64,000 nt of DNA, taken from the NCBI GenBank assembly GCA_002753465.1, contig PEAF01000002.1:10942-74941 (forward strand). Reading direction: 5' to 3'. Made by a program: the position numbers and the translations under genes. This DNA comes from Candidatus Omnitrophota bacterium. GTDB lineage: Bacteria > Omnitrophota > Gorgyraeia > Zapsychrales > Fredricksoniimonadaceae. The stretch's first letter is position 1, and each line of letters begins with the position of its first letter. Positions 6,056 through 24,791 of this stretch are shown piece after piece. The notes beneath the pieces are model-generated. The model made no database searches and was not told the origin of the DNA. It saw nothing but the letters and a program-made list of their open reading frames with translations.

Positions 6056-6607
6056 CTAACCCAATTGCACCTGAATCCCGGGCCTGTATTGATCTTGCAG
6101 AATATTCTGGATCGCATACAACGTTCCCATGGCCGCATGCGGGCAGCAACCACAAGCACCTTGATAGCTAATCGTTAATACATCGCCTTCCAATGAGATC
6201 ACCTCAAGGTCACCGCCATCGCGCTGCAGGGCCGGACGGATAGTAGAATCTAAAATGGCATTTATCTTCGCAAGTTCGCCCGTTAGAGGAATAGTTCCCC
6301 CAACCTTATCAGCAGAAAGATCAAAATCGGGATTATGGTCTGCAATATGCATCTGTATAGCTGTTTTAATGAGGCCCTCAAGTTCATCCCAATTGCCAAT
6401 CCCCGACTGAGTTACGGTCAAGAACCTGCCAGAGAAATAAACCTCGCTCACCTGAGGGACATTAAGTATGGCGGCAGCCAAAGGAACACCTTTAGCAGCA
6501 TCTATTGTTTTAAAAACAGCACTGTCTGTTGATTTCAGAGGTACATTAAGTACAAACTTAAGCGCATTAGGGTTAGGCGTAGGCTGAACCGCAATTGAAT
6601 AATCCAT
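6056..6607 (-). CDS. NfuA-like Fe-S cluster carrier (Nfu_N + NifU C-terminal CxxC domain)
   Basis: Start at MDYSIAV with AAGGAG SD; Nfu N-domain plus C-terminal GACGCCPHA motif. Confidence 0.6.
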   Translation of the reverse strand: MDYSIAVQPTPNPNALKFVLNVPLKSTDSAVFKTIDAAKGVPLAAAILNVPQVSEVYFSGRFLTVTQSGIGNWDELEGLIKTAIQMHIADHNPDFDLSADKVGGTIPLTGELAKINAILDSTIRPALQRDGGDLEVISLEGDVLTISYQGACGCCPHAAMGTLYAIQNILQDQYRPGIQVQLG

Positions 6608-6712
6608 TCTCATCTCCTTTTTTAGTACATAAATAATAGCGTCAAATTGGAAATCGGTCAAATAATAACTTATATCTTAAATTTAGTCGAATGGCTCCAG
6701 GAAAACTTTCAA

Positions 6713-7930
6713 TCATCCCAGAATATATTTTTCGCAGACGAAATCAGCGAAGGGAAAGGCGCAGGTGAAAGCCGGTGAAACGGCATTAAGTACATGGACA
6801 GTAGAACGGTCGCCCTCAACTACAAAATCCTGTACTAAATGACGCGTGGTTTTGTCCAAAAGTTGGGCACGGATACCCGGACGTGTAAATTCACCGAAAC
6901 CTTCAGGGTCGATGGAAGGGATCATCCTGACGGCCAGATCAATAAAATAACGACGATTGTATTTTCTAATTTCATCAAAAGCCAGATCCCTGAAGCCGAA
7001 AGAATTCGACAAGAATAATCCGGCCTGATGGCTTACGATCTCAGCCATTTCACGCAGATCAAAACGATGGCCGATCGAATAATTCTCCCTCCAGAAAGCA
7101 GGAATAGCAGTAGGCCCTATCTTTATCGTACCATCAACTGTTTTTGTAAAGTGTACACCCAGGAAAGGATTCTTAAGATTAGGCACTGGGTAAACATTGA
7201 TTTTCACATCAGTTTTATTTTTCTTATACTTAAGGTATAACCCCTTAAAAGGGATCATGGTGTATTTCATGCCAAAACCACACGCTTGAGCAACTTGGTC
7301 TGCATAAAGACCGGCACAGTTGATTATCTTGCGTGCTTCAAAATCGCCGGCGCTTGTCTTGACCACCTGGCCATTACGGCCCAGGAACTTGGCCTCAAAC
7401 ACAAACTCAACCTGCACATTCATCAGATCATCCTTAAGAGCGACCAGTACATCCAAAGGGTCGAGACTTGCCGTATCAGGCGAAAAAAGCGCCTTCTTGT
7501 ACGTAAACACACCAGGTTCATATACCTTTGCTTCTTCTCTATCGATCAATCTCACGTGAGACCCGTTACGCTTCCCCCGCCGCTCCAACTCGTGCAACAT
7601 GGCCAATTCACCCTCATCCATGGCAACGACCAGTTTGCCACAAGCATTCACGGGTATATTCTTTAAGGCACAGTAATCCTTTAATGCCCCGGCACCCTGT
7701 ACAGTGAATCTCGCCTTTAAACTATCAGCGCTGTAATAAAAACCAGCATGCAGAATACCGCTGTTTCTGCCAGATGAATGGGCTCCAACATCCTCCTCTT
7801 TATCAAGGACCAAGATCAACGCACCAGGTTTCACAGTCCGCAAACTACGTGCAATACTGAGACCGATAACGCCCGCACCAATGATCACATAATCATAAAT
7901 CTTATTGGACATATATTGATTCCATGACAA
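6713..7930 (-). CDS. FAD-dependent oxidoreductase, L-2-hydroxyglutarate oxidase (LhgO)-like
   Basis: 405 aa; DYVIIGAGVIGLSIARSL dinucleotide-binding motif; colinear similarity to LhgO/DAO family. Confidence 0.65.
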   Translation of the reverse strand: MSWNQYMSNKIYDYVIIGAGVIGLSIARSLRTVKPGALILVLDKEEDVGAHSSGRNSGILHAGFYYSADSLKARFTVQGAGALKDYCALKNIPVNACGKLVVAMDEGELAMLHELERRGKRNGSHVRLIDREEAKVYEPGVFTYKKALFSPDTASLDPLDVLVALKDDLMNVQVEFVFEAKFLGRNGQVVKTSAGDFEARKIINCAGLYADQVAQACGFGMKYTMIPFKGLYLKYKKNKTDVKINVYPVPNLKNPFLGVHFTKTVDGTIKIGPTAIPAFWRENYSIGHRFDLREMAEIVSHQAGLFLSNSFGFRDLAFDEIRKYNRRYFIDLAVRMIPSIDPEGFGEFTRPGIRAQLLDKTTRHLVQDFVVEGDRSTVHVLNAVSPAFTCAFPFADFVCEKYILG

Positions 7931-10030: not shown

Positions 10031-11071
10031 TTACTCACAGGCGGTCTTTCTTGACGACTGAGCCTCAGCATATTCAAACATGGCTTCCAAGGACTTTAAT
10101 GCTTTAATACGAACAGCATCCTCAATAACAACCCTGTCTGAAGCCTTTGGCGCTTTCAAAACACGCAAAATATCTTCAAGGGTATTGGACTTCATATATT
10201 TGCACAAAGCACAACTTCCCACAAGTTCCTTATCAGGAAATTCTGACTGCAATCTCGCTGACAAGCCGCATTCGGTCAGCATTAGGAACTGCTTCGATCT
10301 GGTCTTACGCATATAGTCAAGCATCTGCTCGGTGCCACCGACGAAGTCAGAATTGGCTACAACATCAGCATTACACTCCGGGTGACTGACGATCTTGGCC
10401 TGAGGATATTCAAGCCTCACTTTAAGGATGGCTTCCTCATTGTATTCTTCATGAACATAGCAAGTACCCTTGAAGAACTGAATATCTTTCCTTACCCCAC
10501 GCCGGGCCATCTCATTTTTGAGATTTATCCCCATGAACTTGTCGGGCAGGAAGTAGATCTTATCCGAAGGATACTTCTCGACGATGGCATAAACATTCGC
10601 TGAGGTTACACAAACATCACACTCAGCTTTGACCTCGGCCGTTGTATTGACATAGCAAATGAACGTGTACCCGGGAAACTGTTTTCTTAAATTACGCACA
10701 TCCTCAGCCGTAATAGCATCCGCCAGTGTACAACCCGATAGCCGTGCCGGCACCAGGACTTCTTTATCCGGATTAAGTATTTTAGCCGTCTCCCCCATGA
10801 AACGAACCGCCACAAAAACGATCGTCTTAGCCTTTGTATTAACGGCGTCTTTACTTAACTTGTAGGAATCACCTATAAAATCGGCAACACCGTAAACTAT
10901 CTCGGGGGAAACATATGAATGCACCAAAATCACTGCATCTTTTTCCTTCTTCAAGCGGTTGATCTCGTTGATCAAAGGCACCAGCTCTTCACACTTTCTG
11001 AGTGAATACTGGCAAACATTCCCGCCAATACGGACATTTTTTAATTTATTATATAAATCTTCTGCTGTCAT
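10031..11071 (-). CDS. nadA: quinolinate synthase NadA
   Basis: 346 aa; three-fold repeated NadA architecture, conserved cysteines, C-terminal TECGLS motif. Confidence 0.8.
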   Translation of the reverse strand: MTAEDLYNKLKNVRIGGNVCQYSLRKCEELVPLINEINRLKKEKDAVILVHSYVSPEIVYGVADFIGDSYKLSKDAVNTKAKTIVFVAVRFMGETAKILNPDKEVLVPARLSGCTLADAITAEDVRNLRKQFPGYTFICYVNTTAEVKAECDVCVTSANVYAIVEKYPSDKIYFLPDKFMGINLKNEMARRGVRKDIQFFKGTCYVHEEYNEEAILKVRLEYPQAKIVSHPECNADVVANSDFVGGTEQMLDYMRKTRSKQFLMLTECGLSARLQSEFPDKELVGSCALCKYMKSNTLEDILRVLKAPKASDRVVIEDAVRIKALKSLEAMFEYAEAQSSRKTACE

Positions 11072-11155
11072 AGGAGGCCCAGGAAACGAATGCTTAGTCG
11101 TATTTTCATTAAAAATATTGAGTTACTATATATTAAAACAAACGATTGTTCAAGA

Positions 11156-12520
11156 TTAGAGGCTAGCGTTAACGACTTCACCTTTTAGCTGATGGGGCGT
11201 CCCCTTGGTGATCCTGACATTAACAGTGTCCCCTATTTTCAAAATCATGTCAGGAACCGGCGTTAAAAGAACAATTTTATTGGCATCATTACGCCCGTAG
11301 ATCGACCCGCCTTTTTCTTTCTCCATAGATTCGATCAGAACAGGTTGAACCTGACCTACCAGCGCCTTGTTCTTTTCCAAGGATATCCCTGTTTGAAGTG
11401 TATTGATCCTGACAATGCGCCGTGTCTTAACATTTTCAGGTACATCATCAGTCATTTTTCGGGAAGCTTCTGTATTAGGACGGACAGAATATTTGAACAT
11501 GAACGCCGTATCAAATCTGACCGCCTCCATCACGCGCACCGTATCCTCAAACTCGGCATCAGTCTCTGTCGGAAAGCCAACGATCACATCCGTTGACAAT
11601 GCCATAGCAGGGCAAGCCTTACGGAGTTTGTCGACGAGGCCTTTAAAATCAGCCTGCGTATAGTTACGATTCATGACAGACAATACTCTGTCATTACCTG
11701 CCTGCAGGGGCAAATGCACCTGCTTGCAAACCTTAGGGTTCTGTGCCAGGACCTTGATCAGACTCTCAGGAAAATCTTTAGGGTGCGGTGAGGTAAATCG
11801 GATGCGATCAACGCCATCGACCCTGGATACTTGATCGACAAGGAACGCAAAATCATGCCCGTCATGTGCATACGAATTTACATTCTGCCCCAACAATGTC
11901 ACCTGCTTAAACCCTTCACCCGCCAGGCGTCTGACCTCATCGAGAATACTATCAACAGAACGGCTACGCTCCCGGCCACGTGTAAAAGGAACAATACAGA
12001 ACGAGCAGAAATTATTACACCCGCGCATCACGGCCACCCAGGCGTTCACGCCGGCAGTCCTGGTCGGATAAACATCAGCATAGGTTTCAAACTCTGACAA
12101 AGTAACATCATACCCGGTAGCATCGGTATCATGAAGGTTTTGCAGGATTTGAGGAAGGCGCTTGTAGCTGTCCGGGCCAACTACAAAATCAAGCGCCAGA
12201 TGTTTGTTATCTATGAGCTCTTTACGTAACCCTGTCGCCATACACCCGAGTATCCCAATCAAAACAGGCTTTCCTTGACGGCGATGGCGCATATCATGAA
12301 TATGTCCATAAACCTTGCGATGGGCATTCTCACGCACCGAACATGTATTAAGCATAATAATGTCAGCCTGAAGATCGTCATCAACAAAGAAATACCCGGC
12401 CTCGAGCAAGATAGCGCGCACAAGCTCCGTATCATACTCATTCATCTGACAACCGAAAGTAATGAGCGCGATACGCTTTCCGGTTTTGTCGCAACTATCT
12501 GGTCTTGCTTCACTTGGCAC
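11156..12520 (-). CDS. miaB: tRNA-i6A37 methylthiotransferase MiaB (radical SAM MTTase with TRAM domain)
   Basis: 454 aa; N-terminal ITFGCQMNEYD, radical SAM CNNFCSFC; apparent GTG start; 5' end overlaps 3' end of the recombinase gene. Confidence 0.8.
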   Translation of the reverse strand: MPSEARPDSCDKTGKRIALITFGCQMNEYDTELVRAILLEAGYFFVDDDLQADIIMLNTCSVRENAHRKVYGHIHDMRHRRQGKPVLIGILGCMATGLRKELIDNKHLALDFVVGPDSYKRLPQILQNLHDTDATGYDVTLSEFETYADVYPTRTAGVNAWVAVMRGCNNFCSFCIVPFTRGRERSRSVDSILDEVRRLAGEGFKQVTLLGQNVNSYAHDGHDFAFLVDQVSRVDGVDRIRFTSPHPKDFPESLIKVLAQNPKVCKQVHLPLQAGNDRVLSVMNRNYTQADFKGLVDKLRKACPAMALSTDVIVGFPTETDAEFEDTVRVMEAVRFDTAFMFKYSVRPNTEASRKMTDDVPENVKTRRIVRINTLQTGISLEKNKALVGQVQPVLIESMEKEKGGSIYGRNDANKIVLLTPVPDMILKIGDTVNVRITKGTPHQLKGEVVNASL

Positions 12521-14103
12521 TTTACAGCCACCCCTTCGAATAAACTTTTAAACGGCTGATACAAATCAAACTTCGTAATCCGTCCACCCTCAACGCTGAT
12601 GGACCTGAATAATAGCTTAATAAGTCCCTTTTTTCCAGCCATATCAAGATCTTCATTGATAGACTCAAAATGGTTCGCCACAGACTGGAGTAATTTGAGA
12701 TACTCCGTACTCCTTTCCTTCTCGATCATACTCAATTCATGCCTTCTGATCCTGGATCTGATGTCATTCTCTGCATGCCTTAATGGCATTATCTGATTCT
12801 TATACGCCTCTTTGGCCAGCAAACCCTCGGAGAAGATCCCGCTTAGCTTCTCTTGTCTTGAAATATTGGTACCAAGCTCGACCTTTAACTTGGCTACCCC
12901 ATCCCTGACATCTTCAGTGTAAGCTTTGGTCGCCTGCTTCAGCAACCCTTCCAGCCTGGTATCGCTAATGTCTTCCATAAAGATTAATCTGAGAACTTCA
13001 CAAATAAAACTTTCTGCCTCATCAGCCCTGACATAGCCATTCCCGCACTTCGCATTATGTTTAGCATTCCCGCAACAACGATAGTACCTTCTTTTTTCCA
13101 ATGTCTTTCGCTTTCCACCTAAGGCCGGATCTTTCTTGCTCCTCTTGGACGCAGCTAAACAGCCCTGAAAGCGAAGCCCACATACCCCACAGATCAACAA
13201 ACCAGACAATAAATAGTCCTGATTCCCCTGGCGTGTTAAGACGCCATTTCTGTTCAACGAAAGTCGTTTCTGAACAGTATCAAAATCATCCTTATGGATA
13301 ATTCGTTCATGCTCGCTATCGCCATAAATGAACTTCGACGGGTCATTCTTAACAAATTTAAAACCCTTCAGCGTCTTCTTCGTCTTGTCGTATCTTCTTC
13401 GATTCCATACAAGCCTCCCGAGATAAACCGGATTCTTCAAAATGTCACAGACAAGCTTAGTATGAAACATGCCCCCGCTTCTGGTCTTATAGCCCTTCTT
13501 ATACAGATATCCTGCGATCTGTCCGGTACTGCTTCCCGACTGATACATGAGGTAAATTGTTTTAACTACGGCGGCTTCCTCAGGAACCACCTCCAAGATT
13601 TTCTTTTCCTTATTATAATGGTAGCCGTACGGATAATACCGAGAGCCTTGCCAGTGTCCTCTCTGCACTCCCTTTATCATCCCGGGAAGAATTCTCTCCT
13701 TCAGCCGATTCCTTTCAAACTCGGCAAAGGTCCCTAGAAGCTGGAACATCAGCTTGCCGGATGAATTTGTTGTATCGAAAAACTCCGTAGCTGATTTGAA
13801 CCCAATGCCTGCCAGTTCGAGATCCTCGACCAAAGTAACAACATCCTTCAGTTTCCTTGAGAATCTGTCCAGCTTATAGACCAGAATGAAATCGAACTTC
13901 TTCTTTTTGGCATCCGCAAGAAGCCGTCTTAATGCAGGACGATCTAATGAATAGCCACTTATCCCGTCGTCTTCATAAACATTAAATACCTCATGACCTT
14001 CCTGCTTGGCATACTTGAGCAAGAATTCCCTCTGAACTTCCATGGAGAATCCTTCTCTTGCCTGATCCTCCGTCGAAACTCTTGTATAAATGGCAACTTT
14101 CAT
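12442..14103 (-). CDS. large serine recombinase (resolvase domain + recombinase domain + zinc ribbon)
   Basis: 553 aa; N-terminal VAIYTRVSTEDQ catalytic Ser motif, central recombinase domain, Cys-rich zinc-ribbon (CGVCG...CC...C). Confidence 0.85.
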   Translation of the reverse strand: MKVAIYTRVSTEDQAREGFSMEVQREFLLKYAKQEGHEVFNVYEDDGISGYSLDRPALRRLLADAKKKKFDFILVYKLDRFSRKLKDVVTLVEDLELAGIGFKSATEFFDTTNSSGKLMFQLLGTFAEFERNRLKERILPGMIKGVQRGHWQGSRYYPYGYHYNKEKKILEVVPEEAAVVKTIYLMYQSGSSTGQIAGYLYKKGYKTRSGGMFHTKLVCDILKNPVYLGRLVWNRRRYDKTKKTLKGFKFVKNDPSKFIYGDSEHERIIHKDDFDTVQKRLSLNRNGVLTRQGNQDYLLSGLLICGVCGLRFQGCLAASKRSKKDPALGGKRKTLEKRRYYRCCGNAKHNAKCGNGYVRADEAESFICEVLRLIFMEDISDTRLEGLLKQATKAYTEDVRDGVAKLKVELGTNISRQEKLSGIFSEGLLAKEAYKNQIMPLRHAENDIRSRIRRHELSMIEKERSTEYLKLLQSVANHFESINEDLDMAGKKGLIKLLFRSISVEGGRITKFDLYQPFKSLFEGVAVKCQVKQDQIVATKPESVSRSLLSVVR

Positions 14104-18844: not shown

Positions 18845-18888
18845 CACAAAAAATCCCTTGTCAGTGTCAGAGTGACACCAACAAGGGA
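18845..18888 (-). terminator. rho-independent terminator (minus strand) ending the AT-rich cargo block
   Basis: Stem TCCCTTGT/ACAAGGGA with inner palindrome GTGTCA..TGACAC, followed on minus strand by TTTTTTTGTG. Confidence 0.5.
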
Positions 18889-19013
18889 TGTAATTGAGAC
18901 CCCCCTGGGGCACGAAACGAAGATTATTTCAGACTATATAATGACTAGGAACCTGCAGGAATTTTTTAGAGAAATTTTCGGGGAATAAGAAATTTATAGC
19001 AGCGACGCGCGCA

Positions 19014-19526
19014 CTAGTTAATTAAATTTTCCAGAACTCTTTGAGGGATAAAGCCATCATGCAAGGCCGCTTCAATATAAACAGATTGCTTGGTCGGCAT
19101 TCTGTCTGACTTTGAAGCGACTTCCTTTTTCTGCATCAATTCTGCGAACTTAACGACAGGGAGAGCTGCCACTTTTTTCATCCCATTACCATTGTCGCGC
19201 ATCTTACTTAATAAATCTTGCCTTAAAATCGGCTCAACATCACCCACATCAATATATGATCTCTCCGCCCTTAAATGCGCTTCGTGCAAATCTTCCCATT
19301 GATGCCTTTCGACAACAATGGTCAACGCGGGATTGCACGCATGTGGCTTTGAAGTTAAAGGAAAAAACGGATAAAAGATTAGGGTTGGATGAAAATCTAA
19401 AATCTTTCCTACTAATTTATATTTGCGTTTAACGATTGGGTTATGAGGATCTTTAGACTTGGCGTCTAAATGAATATTTCTAGTTTGGATTCTAGAAATT
19501 AAGTCTTCATCGGAAAGATTACGCAC
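19014..19526 (-). CDS. hypothetical protein (170 aa), candidate toxin partner of Panacea-domain protein
   Basis: Overlaps upstream Panacea-domain gene by 8 nt; no recognizable motif. Confidence 0.45.
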   Translation of the reverse strand: MRNLSDEDLISRIQTRNIHLDAKSKDPHNPIVKRKYKLVGKILDFHPTLIFYPFFPLTSKPHACNPALTIVVERHQWEDLHEAHLRAERSYIDVGDVEPILRQDLLSKMRDNGNGMKKVAALPVVKFAELMQKKEVASKSDRMPTKQSVYIEAALHDGFIPQRVLENLIN

Positions 19527-19989
19527 ATCCTAAATCCAGTTTTTCATTCAAGTGCTCACGTCCGCCTAAGGTTGCGCCGATTCTCACCATTGGGGCTGTT
19601 TGATACGCGATATCAGTGAGCGCTTTGGCGCCGTAGCCTCTTAACTTCTCTAACACTTCATCGATTAACGAATATTCCTCTTCAGAAATCAGTTCAGAAA
19701 CACCCTGCTGATCACCATCAGATTGATAAATTACATATTCATCCCCGGAATAAGCATACTCCGTCTTCGACTTAACGACCCCTTCACTCTGCAAAGCAGT
19801 TAACAAAGTATAAATTTTGTCATCATAAGGTCCATAATAATATCGCACATAGGAAAACTCGGATATGGGCTTCCCTGTCTTTTTAACACTCACCACATCA
19901 ATTAAATAACACAACTTCAGCAAGCTGGTGAGCGAGGCCGTTATGTGCCTTTTGATTATATAGGCTAATAGACTTTTCGTCTTTTCCAT
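19519..19989 (-). CDS. Panacea-domain (DUF4065, SocA/PanA-like) antitoxin-like protein
   Basis: MEKTKSLLAYIIKRHITASLTSLLKLCYLIDVVSVKKTGKPISEFSYVRYYYGPY matches DUF4065/Panacea N-terminal signature. Confidence 0.55.
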   Translation of the reverse strand: MEKTKSLLAYIIKRHITASLTSLLKLCYLIDVVSVKKTGKPISEFSYVRYYYGPYDDKIYTLLTALQSEGVVKSKTEYAYSGDEYVIYQSDGDQQGVSELISEEEYSLIDEVLEKLRGYGAKALTDIAYQTAPMVRIGATLGGREHLNEKLDLGCA

Positions 19990-20117
19990 TTGATTTAATG
20001 ATACCTTATTCAACTTTTTAGTAAAGAAGTTACAAATAAATAAACAAAAACACATTATCTCTTGTGGGTCGCCCCGGGAGACAAGCCGTGAGCTGTCTTA
20101 GATTAAATGTGGCAACC

Positions 20118-20765
20118 TCAAACATCCCAACGAAAACTTTTATAAACTCGCATAAGATCATCAAAAGCGAAATCCCCATACTTAATTGGTGAAATTAAAT
20201 CGAGAAGTAATACATGTTTACCTGAAAGGGCGCTTTCACAGGGTATCATGATAGTTGCGTGGAATCTTTCGTCTCCATCTGAAAATCTCCCTTTTACTGT
20301 AAGCAATGCGCCTTTAATGCCCGCATCATTATTTTGAGCAACATCGGCCTTGCCTCCTCCATCAATATTTTCAATCAAATGCTCGGTTTTCTTAGTAAAT
20401 ATTGCCTCATAGTACTGCTCAAATGTTTCATTTGCTTTTACACTTACAATTTGGACTCGTAAATTACTATGTAACTCTTGGCACATAAACCTATAATCAA
20501 AGAAATTATCAGGATTATGTTCGGGATCAATCATCGAATTCAATAACCCTCTTGAAATAAACCAAATATATTTACAATCTTTGAAAGACATTTGATATTT
20601 AAAATATCGGCCTTTAATATCGCCAACTTTCTTGAAAAGAAGACTAAATGCTATAGGATGTGGCGGCTTATTCTTCCCGCCCATCGTTGACAAATCAGTC
20701 CCACAGTGCTTGCAAACTGTCGCGGCATCCTGAATCTCTTCAATACAAAAAGGACATTTTCTCAT
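20118..20765 (-). CDS. hypothetical protein with N-terminal zinc ribbon (CPFC...CKHC)
   Basis: 215 aa; CxxC-x13-CxxC at N-terminus, remainder unrecognized. Confidence 0.45.
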   Translation of the reverse strand: MRKCPFCIEEIQDAATVCKHCGTDLSTMGGKNKPPHPIAFSLLFKKVGDIKGRYFKYQMSFKDCKYIWFISRGLLNSMIDPEHNPDNFFDYRFMCQELHSNLRVQIVSVKANETFEQYYEAIFTKKTEHLIENIDGGGKADVAQNNDAGIKGALLTVKGRFSDGDERFHATIMIPCESALSGKHVLLLDLISPIKYGDFAFDDLMRVYKSFRWDV

Positions 20766-20807
20766 CTAATTTCATCCCTTTCTACTTACCAATGTTCTTG
20801 TTCAAGA

Positions 20808-21419
20808 TCACAACCCAAATTCACTCTTTAGCACAGCATTCTTCTCTTGATTTAAGCGCTGCTTATCTAACTCCACCTCATTATGAATAATATTAAACGC
20901 AGAAATAATATCTTCTACCCACTCCCCGTGGATAAAACAATCAGGTTCAGCGTTTATCTCCCAGTATGAGGAGCCGGACTTTCTAATGACTCCGTCCAAA
21001 GCGAACTCATAAACTTTCTTATTCTCAACCAATAATCTAAAAGCGCCATATTTTTTTACGCCTAAGAATGAAGACTTACGAAATAGAAAATCGAAAGCCC
21101 TGTTATTTATCATCATTCTTCGACAATCATTAAAGCCTTTCACATCAGGATTGCTTTGATACTTCATCCAAAACCCAAAGTCATAGCTAAAACTGTTTAA
21201 ATCTTTCGGCTTGTTCTTTTCATAATATTGCGACCGTGCATGGCATATTTTCTTGCCAACAACCACAAGGTCGGTGTGTGTCTGACCAAAATCAGACCCC
21301 CAATCGTAAAGCCTAAACATAATTTCACTCAACTTCAAACTTTTAGCCTTCTCTTTCAAAAGACGTATTTTTTCTTTGAGCTCCACTTCAGATACCAATT
21401 CCTGTCCATCGCTAGTCAT
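20808..21419 (-). CDS. hypothetical protein (203 aa), third gene of 3-gene operon
   Basis: 3-nt gap to upstream gene; coiled-coil-like N-terminus; no known motif. Confidence 0.45.
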   Translation of the reverse strand: MTSDGQELVSEVELKEKIRLLKEKAKSLKLSEIMFRLYDWGSDFGQTHTDLVVVGKKICHARSQYYEKNKPKDLNSFSYDFGFWMKYQSNPDVKGFNDCRRMMINNRAFDFLFRKSSFLGVKKYGAFRLLVENKKVYEFALDGVIRKSGSSYWEINAEPDCFIHGEWVEDIISAFNIIHNEVELDKQRLNQEKNAVLKSEFGL

Positions 21420-21421
21420 AA

Positions 21422-22222
21422 CTATTTTCCCTTCCTGACACCAATACGATATTTAATCGGCATCTTCGGGTCGCGTTCTACCTCAGGAATGCCAACTATC
21501 ATCGCGGGGTATGTCAACTTTAAATCAACCAACGTCACAAAAACTTCCTCTGAAAATTCAAACAAATTCGACCACAACACATTTAAAAAATCTTCAATCT
21601 TTTGGTTGTTAACAGTTGGAATCAAGACTTGGCCCTTGCCAGAAGAATCAATCTTGTAATTTATCATCGGCAAATTAAACCCATTATGCTCAATCTCAGT
21701 ACGAATTTCCCTGAATAACGCATACCATTGACGATCATCCCTAAGCATCTTTACAAACTCTTTGAGCCGCGAATCTTCCCCTCGGCCCAAAATTGACTGT
21801 AACCCCTTCTCAAAGGCAGGATCTTTCTGGAAAAAGAACCCAATGGGATAACCCATAAATGCAGAAAGCTTATCAAGACATTGAAGCGATATTCGTCCTT
21901 TTATAAAAAAATCCTTAAAATTACGATTCAGCTCTTGGGCAATGCTCTCTCTTACCGTCCAAGCATTATTTTGCCCTTCAATTATTTCTCCTGAACTAAT
22001 CTTTCTTGAATGATCATCAATAAGACGAGCACATTCTTTAAATGCCTGTCTACACTCCGCTAAATTATTAAATAAAGGCTCGTATAATCCATCGAACTCT
22101 TTGATCTGAACCTCGCCGCACATCACAAAATTCCTTAACTCCAAATTTTGACACATCATTCTAGCAAAAAAAGGATCAGCAGTTCCCTCGTCAGAAATCT
22201 TTTGTATTAGGAACGGCTTCAT
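21422..22222 (-). CDS. hypothetical protein (266 aa), second gene of 3-gene operon
   Basis: Overlaps lipoprotein gene by 4 nt; no known motif. Confidence 0.45.
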   Translation of the reverse strand: MKPFLIQKISDEGTADPFFARMMCQNLELRNFVMCGEVQIKEFDGLYEPLFNNLAECRQAFKECARLIDDHSRKISSGEIIEGQNNAWTVRESIAQELNRNFKDFFIKGRISLQCLDKLSAFMGYPIGFFFQKDPAFEKGLQSILGRGEDSRLKEFVKMLRDDRQWYALFREIRTEIEHNGFNLPMINYKIDSSGKGQVLIPTVNNQKIEDFLNVLWSNLFEFSEEVFVTLVDLKLTYPAMIVGIPEVERDPKMPIKYRIGVRKGK

Positions 22223-22710
22223 TTATACTTAATCGCCTTTGCCTTTATGTTTATAACTTTTTGTGATGTTGTCTCAGAAACAGGCATTGTCCCTACAGTG
22301 TTCCCATACGCGTCTTTTACTGATTCTTGTGTTATATCCGTATCTGTCCTGCTTCCTAATGATGTTTGAATATCCATTAAACCATCAGCCCCAATATTTC
22401 TTGCTTTCGTTTCCAATAATGGCCTCAGGTTGCTATCACGAATAACATACCCCATAACCTCACCTATCACTTCATACGGCTTCTGAGGTTTGTCTCCAAA
22501 AAACAAATCAATCGGATAGTCCTTTGTCTGAGGGGGATAGACACTCTTGTTGTAATTAACAAATGACAGCTGCCTATTAGCTGCAGAACCACCAAGCAGA
22601 TTGCCAAGAAGACCGCCGGATTCAGTAGCGCACCCAGTAGTCAAGACAACCAAAGCCAACAAACAAAAGATTTTTCTCATAATAACAGTCCTCTCCTTTT
22701 CGACGACCAT
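22219..22710 (-). CDS. hypothetical lipoprotein, first gene of 3-gene operon
   Basis: Signal peptide with lipobox MRKIFCLLALVVLTTGC (true start probably ~22680). Confidence 0.5.
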   Translation of the reverse strand: MVVEKERTVIMRKIFCLLALVVLTTGCATESGGLLGNLLGGSAANRQLSFVNYNKSVYPPQTKDYPIDLFFGDKPQKPYEVIGEVMGYVIRDSNLRPLLETKARNIGADGLMDIQTSLGSRTDTDITQESVKDAYGNTVGTMPVSETTSQKVINIKAKAIKYK

Positions 22711-22855
22711 AACTCTATACTTCTAAGCCTTCTTCTCCACAAATACTCTAATATCTGAATCAACAAATTTTGTGGATATTGTATCATCTGCGACGATATT
22801 CACAAACCGGAATTTTCCGCACACCCAGACATTCAGGCATTATGTCGGGTCACAG

Positions 22856-22893
22856 AAACAAAAAAGCCTGATCCCATATCTGGAACCAGGCGC
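22856..22893 (-). terminator. putative rho-independent terminator (minus strand) after the 236-aa gene
   Basis: GCCTG...CAGGC stem followed on minus strand by TTTTTTGTTT. Confidence 0.35.
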
Positions 22894-22930: not shown

Positions 22931-23641
22931 CTATGCCCCTTCCTTCGTGTTTTTCGACTTGATTGATTCTTTCATAAACTCAGCAAAAAGATTTCCCATT
23001 ATTTCAGAGACGGACAGGCCATTAATCTTTTCCTTGCTAACAAGATGCTTTGCTTGTGCCATAATCTTCTCAACTGGAGATCCAATGGCAAGAAGATCAT
23101 CATATGTCCTATGGGCGGCATTTCTTGCGATAAGATAACCGCAAAGATAGGCCGCTCCAATAACAGAAGACACATGAACAACTTGTTCATCAGTAAGTGC
23201 CTCCGGCATCATCGATGATTCGGCCTGAATAAATCTATTTACTTCATTAAAAAAGATCGGTTCTGCTTCGGCCAGAAACTTTAATATTTCTCGACCCTTC
23301 TCTGCGTCGGCAAGCGTCCCGTGAACATCCTGTATAATCTCCCGCGTTACGCTGTGCTCACCATGGCTTTTATTTAAATGCTTCAGTGGCGTCTCTTCTT
23401 CTGCCTCATCTTGTAAAGCAACGCCCTCCTCATCAGGCATCGGCCCATCACTTATTTTCTCCACATGTACATCAGCAATAGCTTGAATATCGCCGTCGTC
23501 TTTTAAATCTTCTAAAACATTATGAGCTAACAATTCAATCGCATGTTCCTCACAAGTTGCTTCAAGATCATATTCAATATGTGCCGAGACCGTCCATGTC
23601 TTCCGATCCTGTTCCATAAAACCCCCTGCGTTATTCCTCAT
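22931..23641 (-). CDS. hypothetical acidic protein (236 aa)
   Basis: Long ORF, highly acidic N-terminal half; no motif recognized. Confidence 0.4.
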   Translation of the reverse strand: MRNNAGGFMEQDRKTWTVSAHIEYDLEATCEEHAIELLAHNVLEDLKDDGDIQAIADVHVEKISDGPMPDEEGVALQDEAEEETPLKHLNKSHGEHSVTREIIQDVHGTLADAEKGREILKFLAEAEPIFFNEVNRFIQAESSMMPEALTDEQVVHVSSVIGAAYLCGYLIARNAAHRTYDDLLAIGSPVEKIMAQAKHLVSKEKINGLSVSEIMGNLFAEFMKESIKSKNTKEGA

Positions 23642-23749: not shown

Positions 23750-24493
23750 TTATTGCTTGGGAGAAAAATACCAGTTTAATGGATCATACGGTAAATATTT
23801 ATCAATCCGCTCGTACCCGTACTTTTGAAAATAATCCAGAATCTTTTTGCTTGTCCGGCGGGCATGTTCAATACAAACAAGTTCAGGTCTGAATTTCTTA
23901 ATATTAAAGCCTGCCAAGGCCTCGGGCTCCCCGCCTTCAATATCCATCGAAAGGAAATCTATCTTTGATACTCCATTCTGATCTAGTAAAGCATCAAGGG
24001 TAATGGCCGGAGCTTCTTGCTGTTTTATATTAGGACTCTGGATATGGTGGTATTTCACAGAAGCTTTCAAGAACCTTACATTTGCTGAAGAAAGTGCTTT
24101 TGCATTTAAAAGTGCGAAAAACGGTTCATTATTAGCCGAATGGTCAGTGACAATGAATCTGAAAAACCTGGTTTTCGGCCGATATTTTAAATACGCATCC
24201 GCATACTCAGCCAGGGCGTCAACCGCTATGCCTGCCCAGCCAAGATGTTGCTCAAGATAATACGTCGTGCTCATGTCTTTATAATCCGCGCACCCTACAT
24301 CAAGAAAAACACCGTTGGAACGGTCATTGAAGAAATCTCGGATTATAAGCTCTTCATTATATTGCGAGTAGAGCTTAACCCCATTATCGAGAATCTCACC
24401 TGCAATGGCATTGTCTTTATGCGCCCAAGGAACGATCTCGTTTACTAAAAATAAATTTAATATAGTAATGAAAATCACAATTATCTTATTCAT
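23750..24493 (-). CDS. FkbM-family methyltransferase
   Basis: 247 aa; VFLDVGCADY SAM-binding motif and FkbM hallmark IDFLSMDIEGGEPEAL; N-terminal hydrophobic segment. Confidence 0.65.
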   Translation of the reverse strand: MNKIIVIFITILNLFLVNEIVPWAHKDNAIAGEILDNGVKLYSQYNEELIIRDFFNDRSNGVFLDVGCADYKDMSTTYYLEQHLGWAGIAVDALAEYADAYLKYRPKTRFFRFIVTDHSANNEPFFALLNAKALSSANVRFLKASVKYHHIQSPNIKQQEAPAITLDALLDQNGVSKIDFLSMDIEGGEPEALAGFNIKKFRPELVCIEHARRTSKKILDYFQKYGYERIDKYLPYDPLNWYFSPKQ

Positions 24494-24791
24494 TAATGCA
24501 ACTTTTCTTCCCTGTCATCATAATATTAAATTTATCCAACACCCAAATTGGGGACAGTTGAAGTACTTTAAACTCCCAATCCTTGATCTTACCCCAATAT
24601 TGACGCGGAGTCGGGCTGTCAGTTAAAGCCTCTACCACATCAACAACACTGAAAAACCATTCATTCTCATGAAAGACTCGCCTGATCTTCTATACTCAAA
24701 CACAACAAGCGATTTATTTTTATCCATAAACCTTCTCCAAGGTTTTAATCAAGATCGTGAAACTTTCTACTCTTTTTCGCTTATCTTCTGT

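Follow-up and report, generated by a model that had tools for sequence, protein, structure and literature searches.

A co-oriented four-gene cargo block in a predicted integrative element of a Candidatus Omnitrophota bacterium and its candidate HEPN-type gene

Architecture of the block and distribution of its genes

We analyzed a 64,000-nucleotide (nt) stretch of DNA from a Candidatus Omnitrophota bacterium (contig PEAF01000002.1; the whole stretch is hereafter called the window, and coordinates refer to it unless a locus is named), in which four genes on the reverse strand, designated A to D, form a compact block within a predicted integrative element. Gene A (22219..22710; open reading frame [ORF] of 163 amino acids [aa]) codes for a predicted lipoprotein, gene B (21422..22222; 266 aa) for a mostly helical protein of a very rare family and candidate HEPN-like RNase, gene C (20808..21419; 203 aa) for a soluble near-orphan, and gene D (20118..20765; 215 aa) for a protein with a putative zinc ribbon at residues 1 to 27 and a second domain at about residues 40 to 215. 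As read from the sequence, A and B share an ATGA and overlap by 4 nt, and the TAG of B is followed after a 2-nt gap by the ATG of C; the gap between C and D is 42 nt long and contains an AAGGGA ribosome-binding site. These coordinates and junctions bear out a preliminary description of this DNA, according to which A, B, and C overlap or abut by no more than 4 nt and D follows 42 nt on. Its statement that A, B, and C lack a recognizable domain held as well, with Pfam, NCBIfam, PADLOC, and PHROGs all blank. Judged from their relatives in the databases (about 30 or more for A, 6 for B, about 8 full-length or partial for D, and 1 for C), the four are real genes rather than chance ORFs.

The putative transcription unit has its predicted 5′ boundary at a terminator-like hairpin (22866..22891, reverse strand; 11-bp stem with 6 GC pairs, then TTTTTTGTTT) that closes the upstream 236-aa gene. 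Between this hairpin and A lies a promoter-like site (22778..22805, reverse strand; TTGTGA-16-TACAAT with an extended TG), which is a consensus match only; 20 such sites were seen in the region versus 16.6 expected by chance. Downstream of A, the first credible terminator is a strong hairpin at 18853..18889 (reverse strand; 17-bp stem with 7 GC pairs, then TTTTTGTGTC), past a gene with a Panacea domain and a gene for a 170-aa protein, so that A, B, C, D, and these two genes may share one transcript and constitute a single six-gene transcription unit. Close spacing of same-strand genes is frequent in bacteria and is by itself no evidence of a functional system. A scan of the region against Rfam revealed no RNA family, and no meaningful repeats were found in the block.

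To follow the four families through other genomes, A, C, and D were concatenated into one exhaustive HMMER query, with matches assigned by query coordinates, and window proteins and island DNA were compared by tblastn, blastp, and tblastx with 22 related non-viral loci. None of the 22 loci carried homologues of two of the four genes, and all matches were to single genes; the viral loci had been matched by D, over its zinc ribbon or in a few cases up to about residue 123, and the screening for A, B, and C was not applied to those. B was found without A, C, and D in three independent contexts, and PADLOC-DB v2.0.0 gave no match for any of the four proteins. The preliminary description had proposed one coupled system, made up of a lipoprotein sensor, cytoplasmic partners, and a zinc-ribbon protein, and had suggested a check of co-occurrence and synteny. 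That check, now run, brought no two block genes together in any related locus, and this lack of co-conservation, which the description itself had named as counting against its proposal, leaves the system hypothesis unsupported. The defense-island setting that it had suggested fared better, in that the genes lie in a low-GC cargo arm beside a toxin-antitoxin-like pair and a B relative lies inside a restriction-modification (R-M) operon, but the single system placed in that setting did not stand.

We consider it somewhat more probable than its negation that the four genes were acquired independently as cargo of an integrative element, where they share one orientation and probably one transcript, and that they are not a conserved multicomponent system. 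This mosaic view rests on the finding that each family has its own distribution, no pair being present in related loci with flanking sequence. In such a cargo, B would be a single-gene HEPN-type toxin or abortive-infection (Abi) RNase, A an envelope lipoprotein, and D a binder. Besides the points against an HEPN assignment of B given below, two observations weigh against it. The sample is small: the B contexts amount to three independent lineages, the one C relative comes from a contig of 810 bp, and short contigs predominate; the absence of co-occurrence is therefore suggestive rather than exhaustive. In addition, the ATGA overlap and the 2-nt gap could mean that, in this lineage, A, B, and C are truly coupled. 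In practical terms, these results matter mainly as a negative, as a system of a sensor lipoprotein plus partners is without support from conservation.

Gene B as a candidate HEPN-type protein

Gene B has 6 relatives (46 to 65% identity) among 5.8 billion protein clusters, giving 7 clusters with B included. The alignment of the 7 members contains 68 invariant columns, including R174, I177, E178, H179, G181, F182, N183, L184, and P185, and R174-x4-H179, which conforms to an Rx4-6H motif, is thus invariant in 7/7. A confident AlphaFold2 model of B (predicted local distance difference test [pLDDT] 88.5; predicted template modeling score [pTM] 0.86) comprises long helices at residues 37 to 77, 95 to 122, 165 to 179, and 209 to 235, helical inserts at 128 to 162, β-hairpins at 81 to 90 and 188 to 200, and a C-terminal β element at 240 to 262. 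R174 and H179 are located at the C-terminal end of helix 165–179, which is followed by a hairpin and then by helix 209–235; the placement was read off the secondary-structure string rather than obtained by superposing structures. This position agrees with that described for the HEPN Rx4-6H motif, which ends helix-3 and precedes the loop that leads to helix-4 (Anantharaman et al. 2013, PMC3710099).

The genomic context of the relatives was also examined. Around a 46%-identical relative, the gene order is hsdR - hsdM - 97-aa gene - B-like gene - HEPN gene (PF05168) - hsdS - GmrSD, and this order was seen on six contigs (L001 to L006), all of one lineage. Two further B relatives lie among unrelated small genes, one of them (in L008) near a DUF4145 gene. 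Neither tblastn of B against plasmids and phages nor a scan of IMG/VR returned a match, and a metagenome contig scan with the B alignment only re-found L001. The 97-aa gene between hsdM and the B-like gene (2252–2545 in L001; also present in L002 to L006) is without a Pfam match, and its product contains GIDIV...VVEVETKK, which resembles a minimal PD-(D/E)xK nuclease motif.

Taken together, the motif, the modeled fold, the position of the motif, and the genomic context suggest that B could be an HEPN-type protein, and we regard the chances for and against this assignment as about evenly balanced. Several results weigh against it. No HEPN model of Pfam, NCBIfam, PADLOC, or PHROGs matched B of the window, Pfam run on all 7 family members returned no HEPN family, and the sole PADLOC signal was a weak CARF_HEPN match in 1/7 members (E 0.0037). 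The remote-homology check on B that the preliminary description had suggested did not yield a significant match either: hhalign of the B profile against neighboring HEPN and DUF4145 proteins gave probabilities of ≤0.5%, and Foldseek of the B model against the PDB found nothing (best E 0.49). Furthermore, the 266 residues include 6 R and 2 H that are invariant, and we estimated that an R..H pair at a spacing of 5 to 7 would then arise by chance in about 14% of cases, which makes Rx4H weak as sole evidence. Finally, HEPN proteins usually have N, D, or H after R, which most of the B family lacks: R174 is followed by T in the window protein, by V in 4 relatives, and by N in the other 2, so that 5/7 members have T or V. 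A profile search of the PDB with B also listed 5i45_A (overall E 3.5e-4), which was dismissed as spurious, the per-domain E values being 0.27 and 20 and the matched region a glycosyltransferase C-terminal domain.

Among known proteins, those closest in kind to B are the HEPN Abi proteins (Abi2/AbiD/AbiF, AbiU2, AbiJ, ApeA-like, and DUF4145 proteins; PMC3710099). B is like them in being a stand-alone helical protein with no conserved partner, in having helical inserts in mid-protein and an invariant Rx4H at a helix end ahead of the last long helix, and, as for those Abi proteins that are found in R-M operons, in having a relative that lies in a type I R-M operon, between its hsdM and hsdS genes. 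It differs from them in that no family profile detects it, in the T or V that mostly follows R, and in the extra β-hairpins and the C-terminal β element. Compared with the HEPN-MNT type II/VII toxins (SO_3166 5yep, 7ae2, and DUF86), B is twice as big and shares no sequence similarity with them, and no MNT gene adjoins B in the window or its relatives in L007 and L008.

By analogy with the single-gene HEPN Abi proteins inside R-M operons, B would be a divergent HEPN-type metal-independent RNase with R174 and H179 as its active site, would work by itself as a toxin or in abortive infection, cleaving RNA when triggered, and would form the functional core of any defense role of the block. That B founds an unrecognized HEPN family, with members serving as stand-alone Abi RNases in type I R-M operons and in recombinase islands at a miaB hotspot, is a tentative proposal to which we give a little less than an even chance. 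If real, the family would be new, but both its superfamily and its kind of gene, HEPN genes of R-M operons and defense islands, are known already. Confirmation of B as an RNase would add an HEPN defense or toxin family missed by Pfam and PADLOC and would mark the 5′ end of miaB as a defense-island hotspot in little-studied, mostly uncultured lineages.

Genes A, C, and D and rival explanations of the block

The probable start of gene A is the ATG at 22680 (M11, MRKIF...), because a GGAGAG site lies 8 to 9 nt upstream and all relatives begin there, and the product would then be a 153-aa prelipoprotein. Its N terminus, MRKIFCLLALVVLTTG-C, contains a signal peptide, judged by eye and not with a predictor, and a lipobox, with a Cys conservation of ≥90% across 26 relatives; by these two features, A is predicted to be a bacterial lipoprotein. 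The HMMER search placed it in a family of lipoproteins of about 140 aa with some 30 or more representatives, often on mobile elements. These proteins have the motif Y-x-V-I-G-E-(I/V)...A-R-x-(V/I)-G-(G/A)-D-(G/A), a region in common with YbjQ (UPF0145, PF01906), and relatives of A gave weak matches to YbjQ_1 (4/26 members, best E 0.0014) and DUF4156 (2/26). Unlike true members of these two families, however, no A-family protein reached the gathering threshold of PF01906, every match was below the curated thresholds, and A of the window gave none; its best sequence match in the PDB was YbjQ (1y2i, E 0.11). We infer that A belongs to a YbjQ-like family of envelope lipoproteins that travels on mobile elements, and a role in surface or entry exclusion is conceivable. 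Assignment of A as the o-spanin of a phage lysis cassette was rejected, as the protein is too long, its family is a broad one of non-phage lipoproteins, and no holin or endolysin is present.

The neighbors of A vary between loci. Its closest relative (69% identity, L010) is followed by an FRG-domain gene (560–1390 of that locus, E 1.5e-18) and not by B, the frameshifted A-like gene of L013 by a Schlafen/AlbA_2 gene (6561–7196, E 1.7e-13), and the relative in L016 is flanked by an MNT-HEPN pair and a weakly DUF4145-like gene (1353–1922, E 0.021, below threshold). More distant relatives (34 to 47% identity) are found beside HTH_3, DUF5659, another lipoprotein gene, or a convergent or integrase-like gene. 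A contig scan with an 8-sequence A alignment recovered 3 loci from metagenome-assembled genomes, the genome of the window not among these, and a scan of IMG/VR gave no A match.

Gene C has a single relative (P0011, 48% identity) in 1.84 billion cluster representatives, which is encoded on the 810-bp contig with a divergent ORF upstream; no match to C was found in Pfam, NCBIfam, PADLOC, PHROGs, or the PDB. The word-indexed cluster search returned only self-matches for C and D, while HMMER recovered about 8 full-length or partial D relatives at 28 to 42% identity. The cysteines C4-x2-C7...C18-x2-C21 of D are invariant in 9 relatives, and Zn_ribbon_3 matched 9/9 members of the D family (best E 8.4e-7), with D of the window falling below the curated cutoffs. 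By this pattern, the N terminus of D (aa 1 to 27) is a predicted zinc ribbon. The C-terminal domain (about aa 40 to 215) is similar in fold to solved members of the PsbP/Mog1/DcrB/DUF1795 set, and the DUF1795, DcrB, and PsbP models of Pfam matched neither D nor 8 relatives at E values up to 1. The fold set includes Eag chaperones of the type VI secretion system (T6SS; PA0094 1tu1 and SciW 6xrb), T6SS immunity proteins (TplEi, Tsi3, and Tli4), and the lipoproteins LpqN and DcrB. D differs from these in being cytoplasmic by sequence, with no signal peptide and with an N-terminal zinc ribbon, and, unlike the T6SS members, it has no T6SS or effector gene nearby. Since the fold is common to Eag chaperones and immunity proteins, D is likelier an adaptor or immunity-like binder than an enzyme, and its zinc ribbon would be joined to a protein-binding domain of the PsbP/Mog1/DUF1795 type. 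Relatives of D adjoin a 23S_rRNA_IVP gene or a PLDc_2 gene. Three viral contigs of IMG/VR (L024 to L026) encode proteins matching residues 1 to 123 of D at 30% identity, past the zinc ribbon, and these may be distant D-family relatives in phages; in the other viral loci of IMG/VR, the match was confined to the zinc ribbon.

These data bear on two ways in which the genes could work together. The quite improbable one is that A, B, and C, with or without D, form a lineage-specific defense system, in which the lipoprotein senses perturbation of the envelope and signals to cytoplasmic effectors. The junctions of A with B and of B with C fit such a system, as do the one promoter-like site with no internal terminator and the island-like, defense-like surroundings, and, given the rarity of C and D, partners could be overlooked. 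Yet, beyond the solitary occurrence of each gene, and of B in its three contexts, the nearest A relative is paired with a different gene, no PADLOC model matches, and A, as read from its sequence, has no cytoplasmic or transmembrane segment past the lipid anchor by which a signal could be passed inward. An arrangement that we hold to be highly improbable is a two-gene module of new architecture, in which a periplasm-facing lipoprotein of the A type gates an interchangeable downstream cytoplasmic effector; the effectors would be B in the window, an FRG/ART-like protein in L010, a Schlafen/AlbA_2 protein in L013, and a DUF4145-like protein in L016. All four close A relatives with context (4/4 at 47 to 69% identity, the window counted) precede a same-strand defense-associated gene at a distance of −4 to about 200 nt, and the FRG domain has been proposed as an antiviral effector of the ART superfamily (PMC9503650). 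However, the A relatives at 34 to 47% identity precede genes of the other kinds named above, the B relatives have no A-like gene upstream, two of the four cases are impaired by the subthreshold DUF4145 match in L016 and the frameshift in L013, and any neighbor in a defense island is likely to be defense-like.

It is also unlikely, but less so, that the block has no role in defense at all. The four genes would then be unrelated accessory or selfish cargo coding for envelope, stress, or element-maintenance proteins, and the Rx4H and helical-bundle matches of B would be coincidental. The points raised above against an HEPN assignment speak for this explanation, and the conserved motif, its position, and the R-M context of a B relative speak for the mosaic cargo with a defense gene, which we prefer.

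The island, its insertion site, and neighboring genes

The GC content is 0.37 to 0.42 between positions 19 and 25 kb of the window versus about 0.44 to 0.50 in the flanks. To the left of the island are housekeeping genes (the SUF system, nadA, and a miaB/rimO-like gene). The last of these, a methylthiotransferase gene (11156..12520, reverse strand), provides the insertion point at its 5′ end, where it is abutted by the ORF of a large serine recombinase (12442..14103, reverse strand; Resolvase E 3e-40, Recombinase E 1e-21, and Zn_ribbon_recom E 9e-11), which overlaps the annotated miaB start by 78 nt. The recombinase is followed by genes for a Phage_rep_O protein, a PD-(D/E)XK nuclease, a DUF2958 protein, and an SpoVG-like protein, and the low-GC arm then carries, in order, the 170-aa gene, the Panacea gene, D, C, B, A, the gene for the 236-aa protein, and that for an FkbM-type methyltransferase. 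Genes from 24875 onward (ABC ATPase, deaminase, and glycosyltransferases) look chromosomal. When the far island end was searched for attachment (att) sites and for a miaB 5′ fragment displaced to it, the only finding was a 12-nt exact repeat (12305–12316 and 24723–24734), a protein-level search there gave no miaB fragment, and the right-hand boundary is bracketed only to about 23.6 to 24.9 kb. The island is predicted to be an integrative element of about 12 kb, with the serine recombinase at its head and the start of the miaB-like gene (its 5′ end) as the insertion site.

The same site is used in other genomes. N-terminal (UPF0004) fragments of miaB flank successive islands in L001 to L003: a miaB 5′ fragment, an island, and an intact or cut miaB-like gene follow one another in L002 and L003, and miaB 5′ fragments occur three times in L001. 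In L013, the A-like pseudogene lies within an island ending at a rimO/miaB-like gene (10991–12358). These arrangements indicate that the 5′ end of miaB is a recurrent island site in related metagenomic genomes. The cargo of the L001 to L003 islands includes a type I R-M system, GmrSD, a radical SAM protein, and an ion channel, as well as a protein with a faint Pfam match to pEK499_p136, an HEPN family.

Low GC together with the serine recombinase, Phage_rep_O, and PD-(D/E)XK nuclease genes confirmed the preliminary description in placing the block in the AT-rich cargo of a mobile element. The adjacent toxin-antitoxin-like pair that it had reported was upheld for one of the two genes: the protein encoded at 19519..20055 (reverse strand) has a SocA/Panacea antitoxin domain (PF13274, E 1e-16), but its partner gave no match to a toxin family. 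D and the Panacea gene downstream of it are separated by 62 nt that contain no terminator, and the 170-aa gene (19014..19526, reverse strand) overlaps it by 8 nt. Both the Panacea domain and the overlapping partner gene are as in PanA-PanT pairs, while the 170-aa protein, unlike the partners in those pairs, matches no known toxin family; no match to it was found in Pfam, NCBIfam, PADLOC, or PHROGs. It is the candidate cognate toxin and a candidate new PanT-type toxin. The pair is a neighbor outside the four-gene block, and relatives of D do not lie beside Panacea genes.

On the other side of the block, the low-GC arm encodes an acidic 236-aa protein with no family match (22931–23641, reverse strand) and an FkbM-family methyltransferase with a hydrophobic N terminus (23750–24493, reverse strand). 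Two inverted repeats connect the methyltransferase gene with gene D, one of 17 nt and perfect (20596–20612/24177–24193) and the other of 18 nt with 94% identity (20328–20345/24244–24261); these are probably due to chance, as they are AT-rich and not colinear. Further on, at about 24560–24670 (reverse strand), a short ORF fragment reads ENEWFFSVVDVVEALTDSPTPRQYWGKIKDWE, which we take to resemble Bro-N/RhuM/DinD-like prophage proteins and which is probably what is left of a gene close to the right-hand island end.

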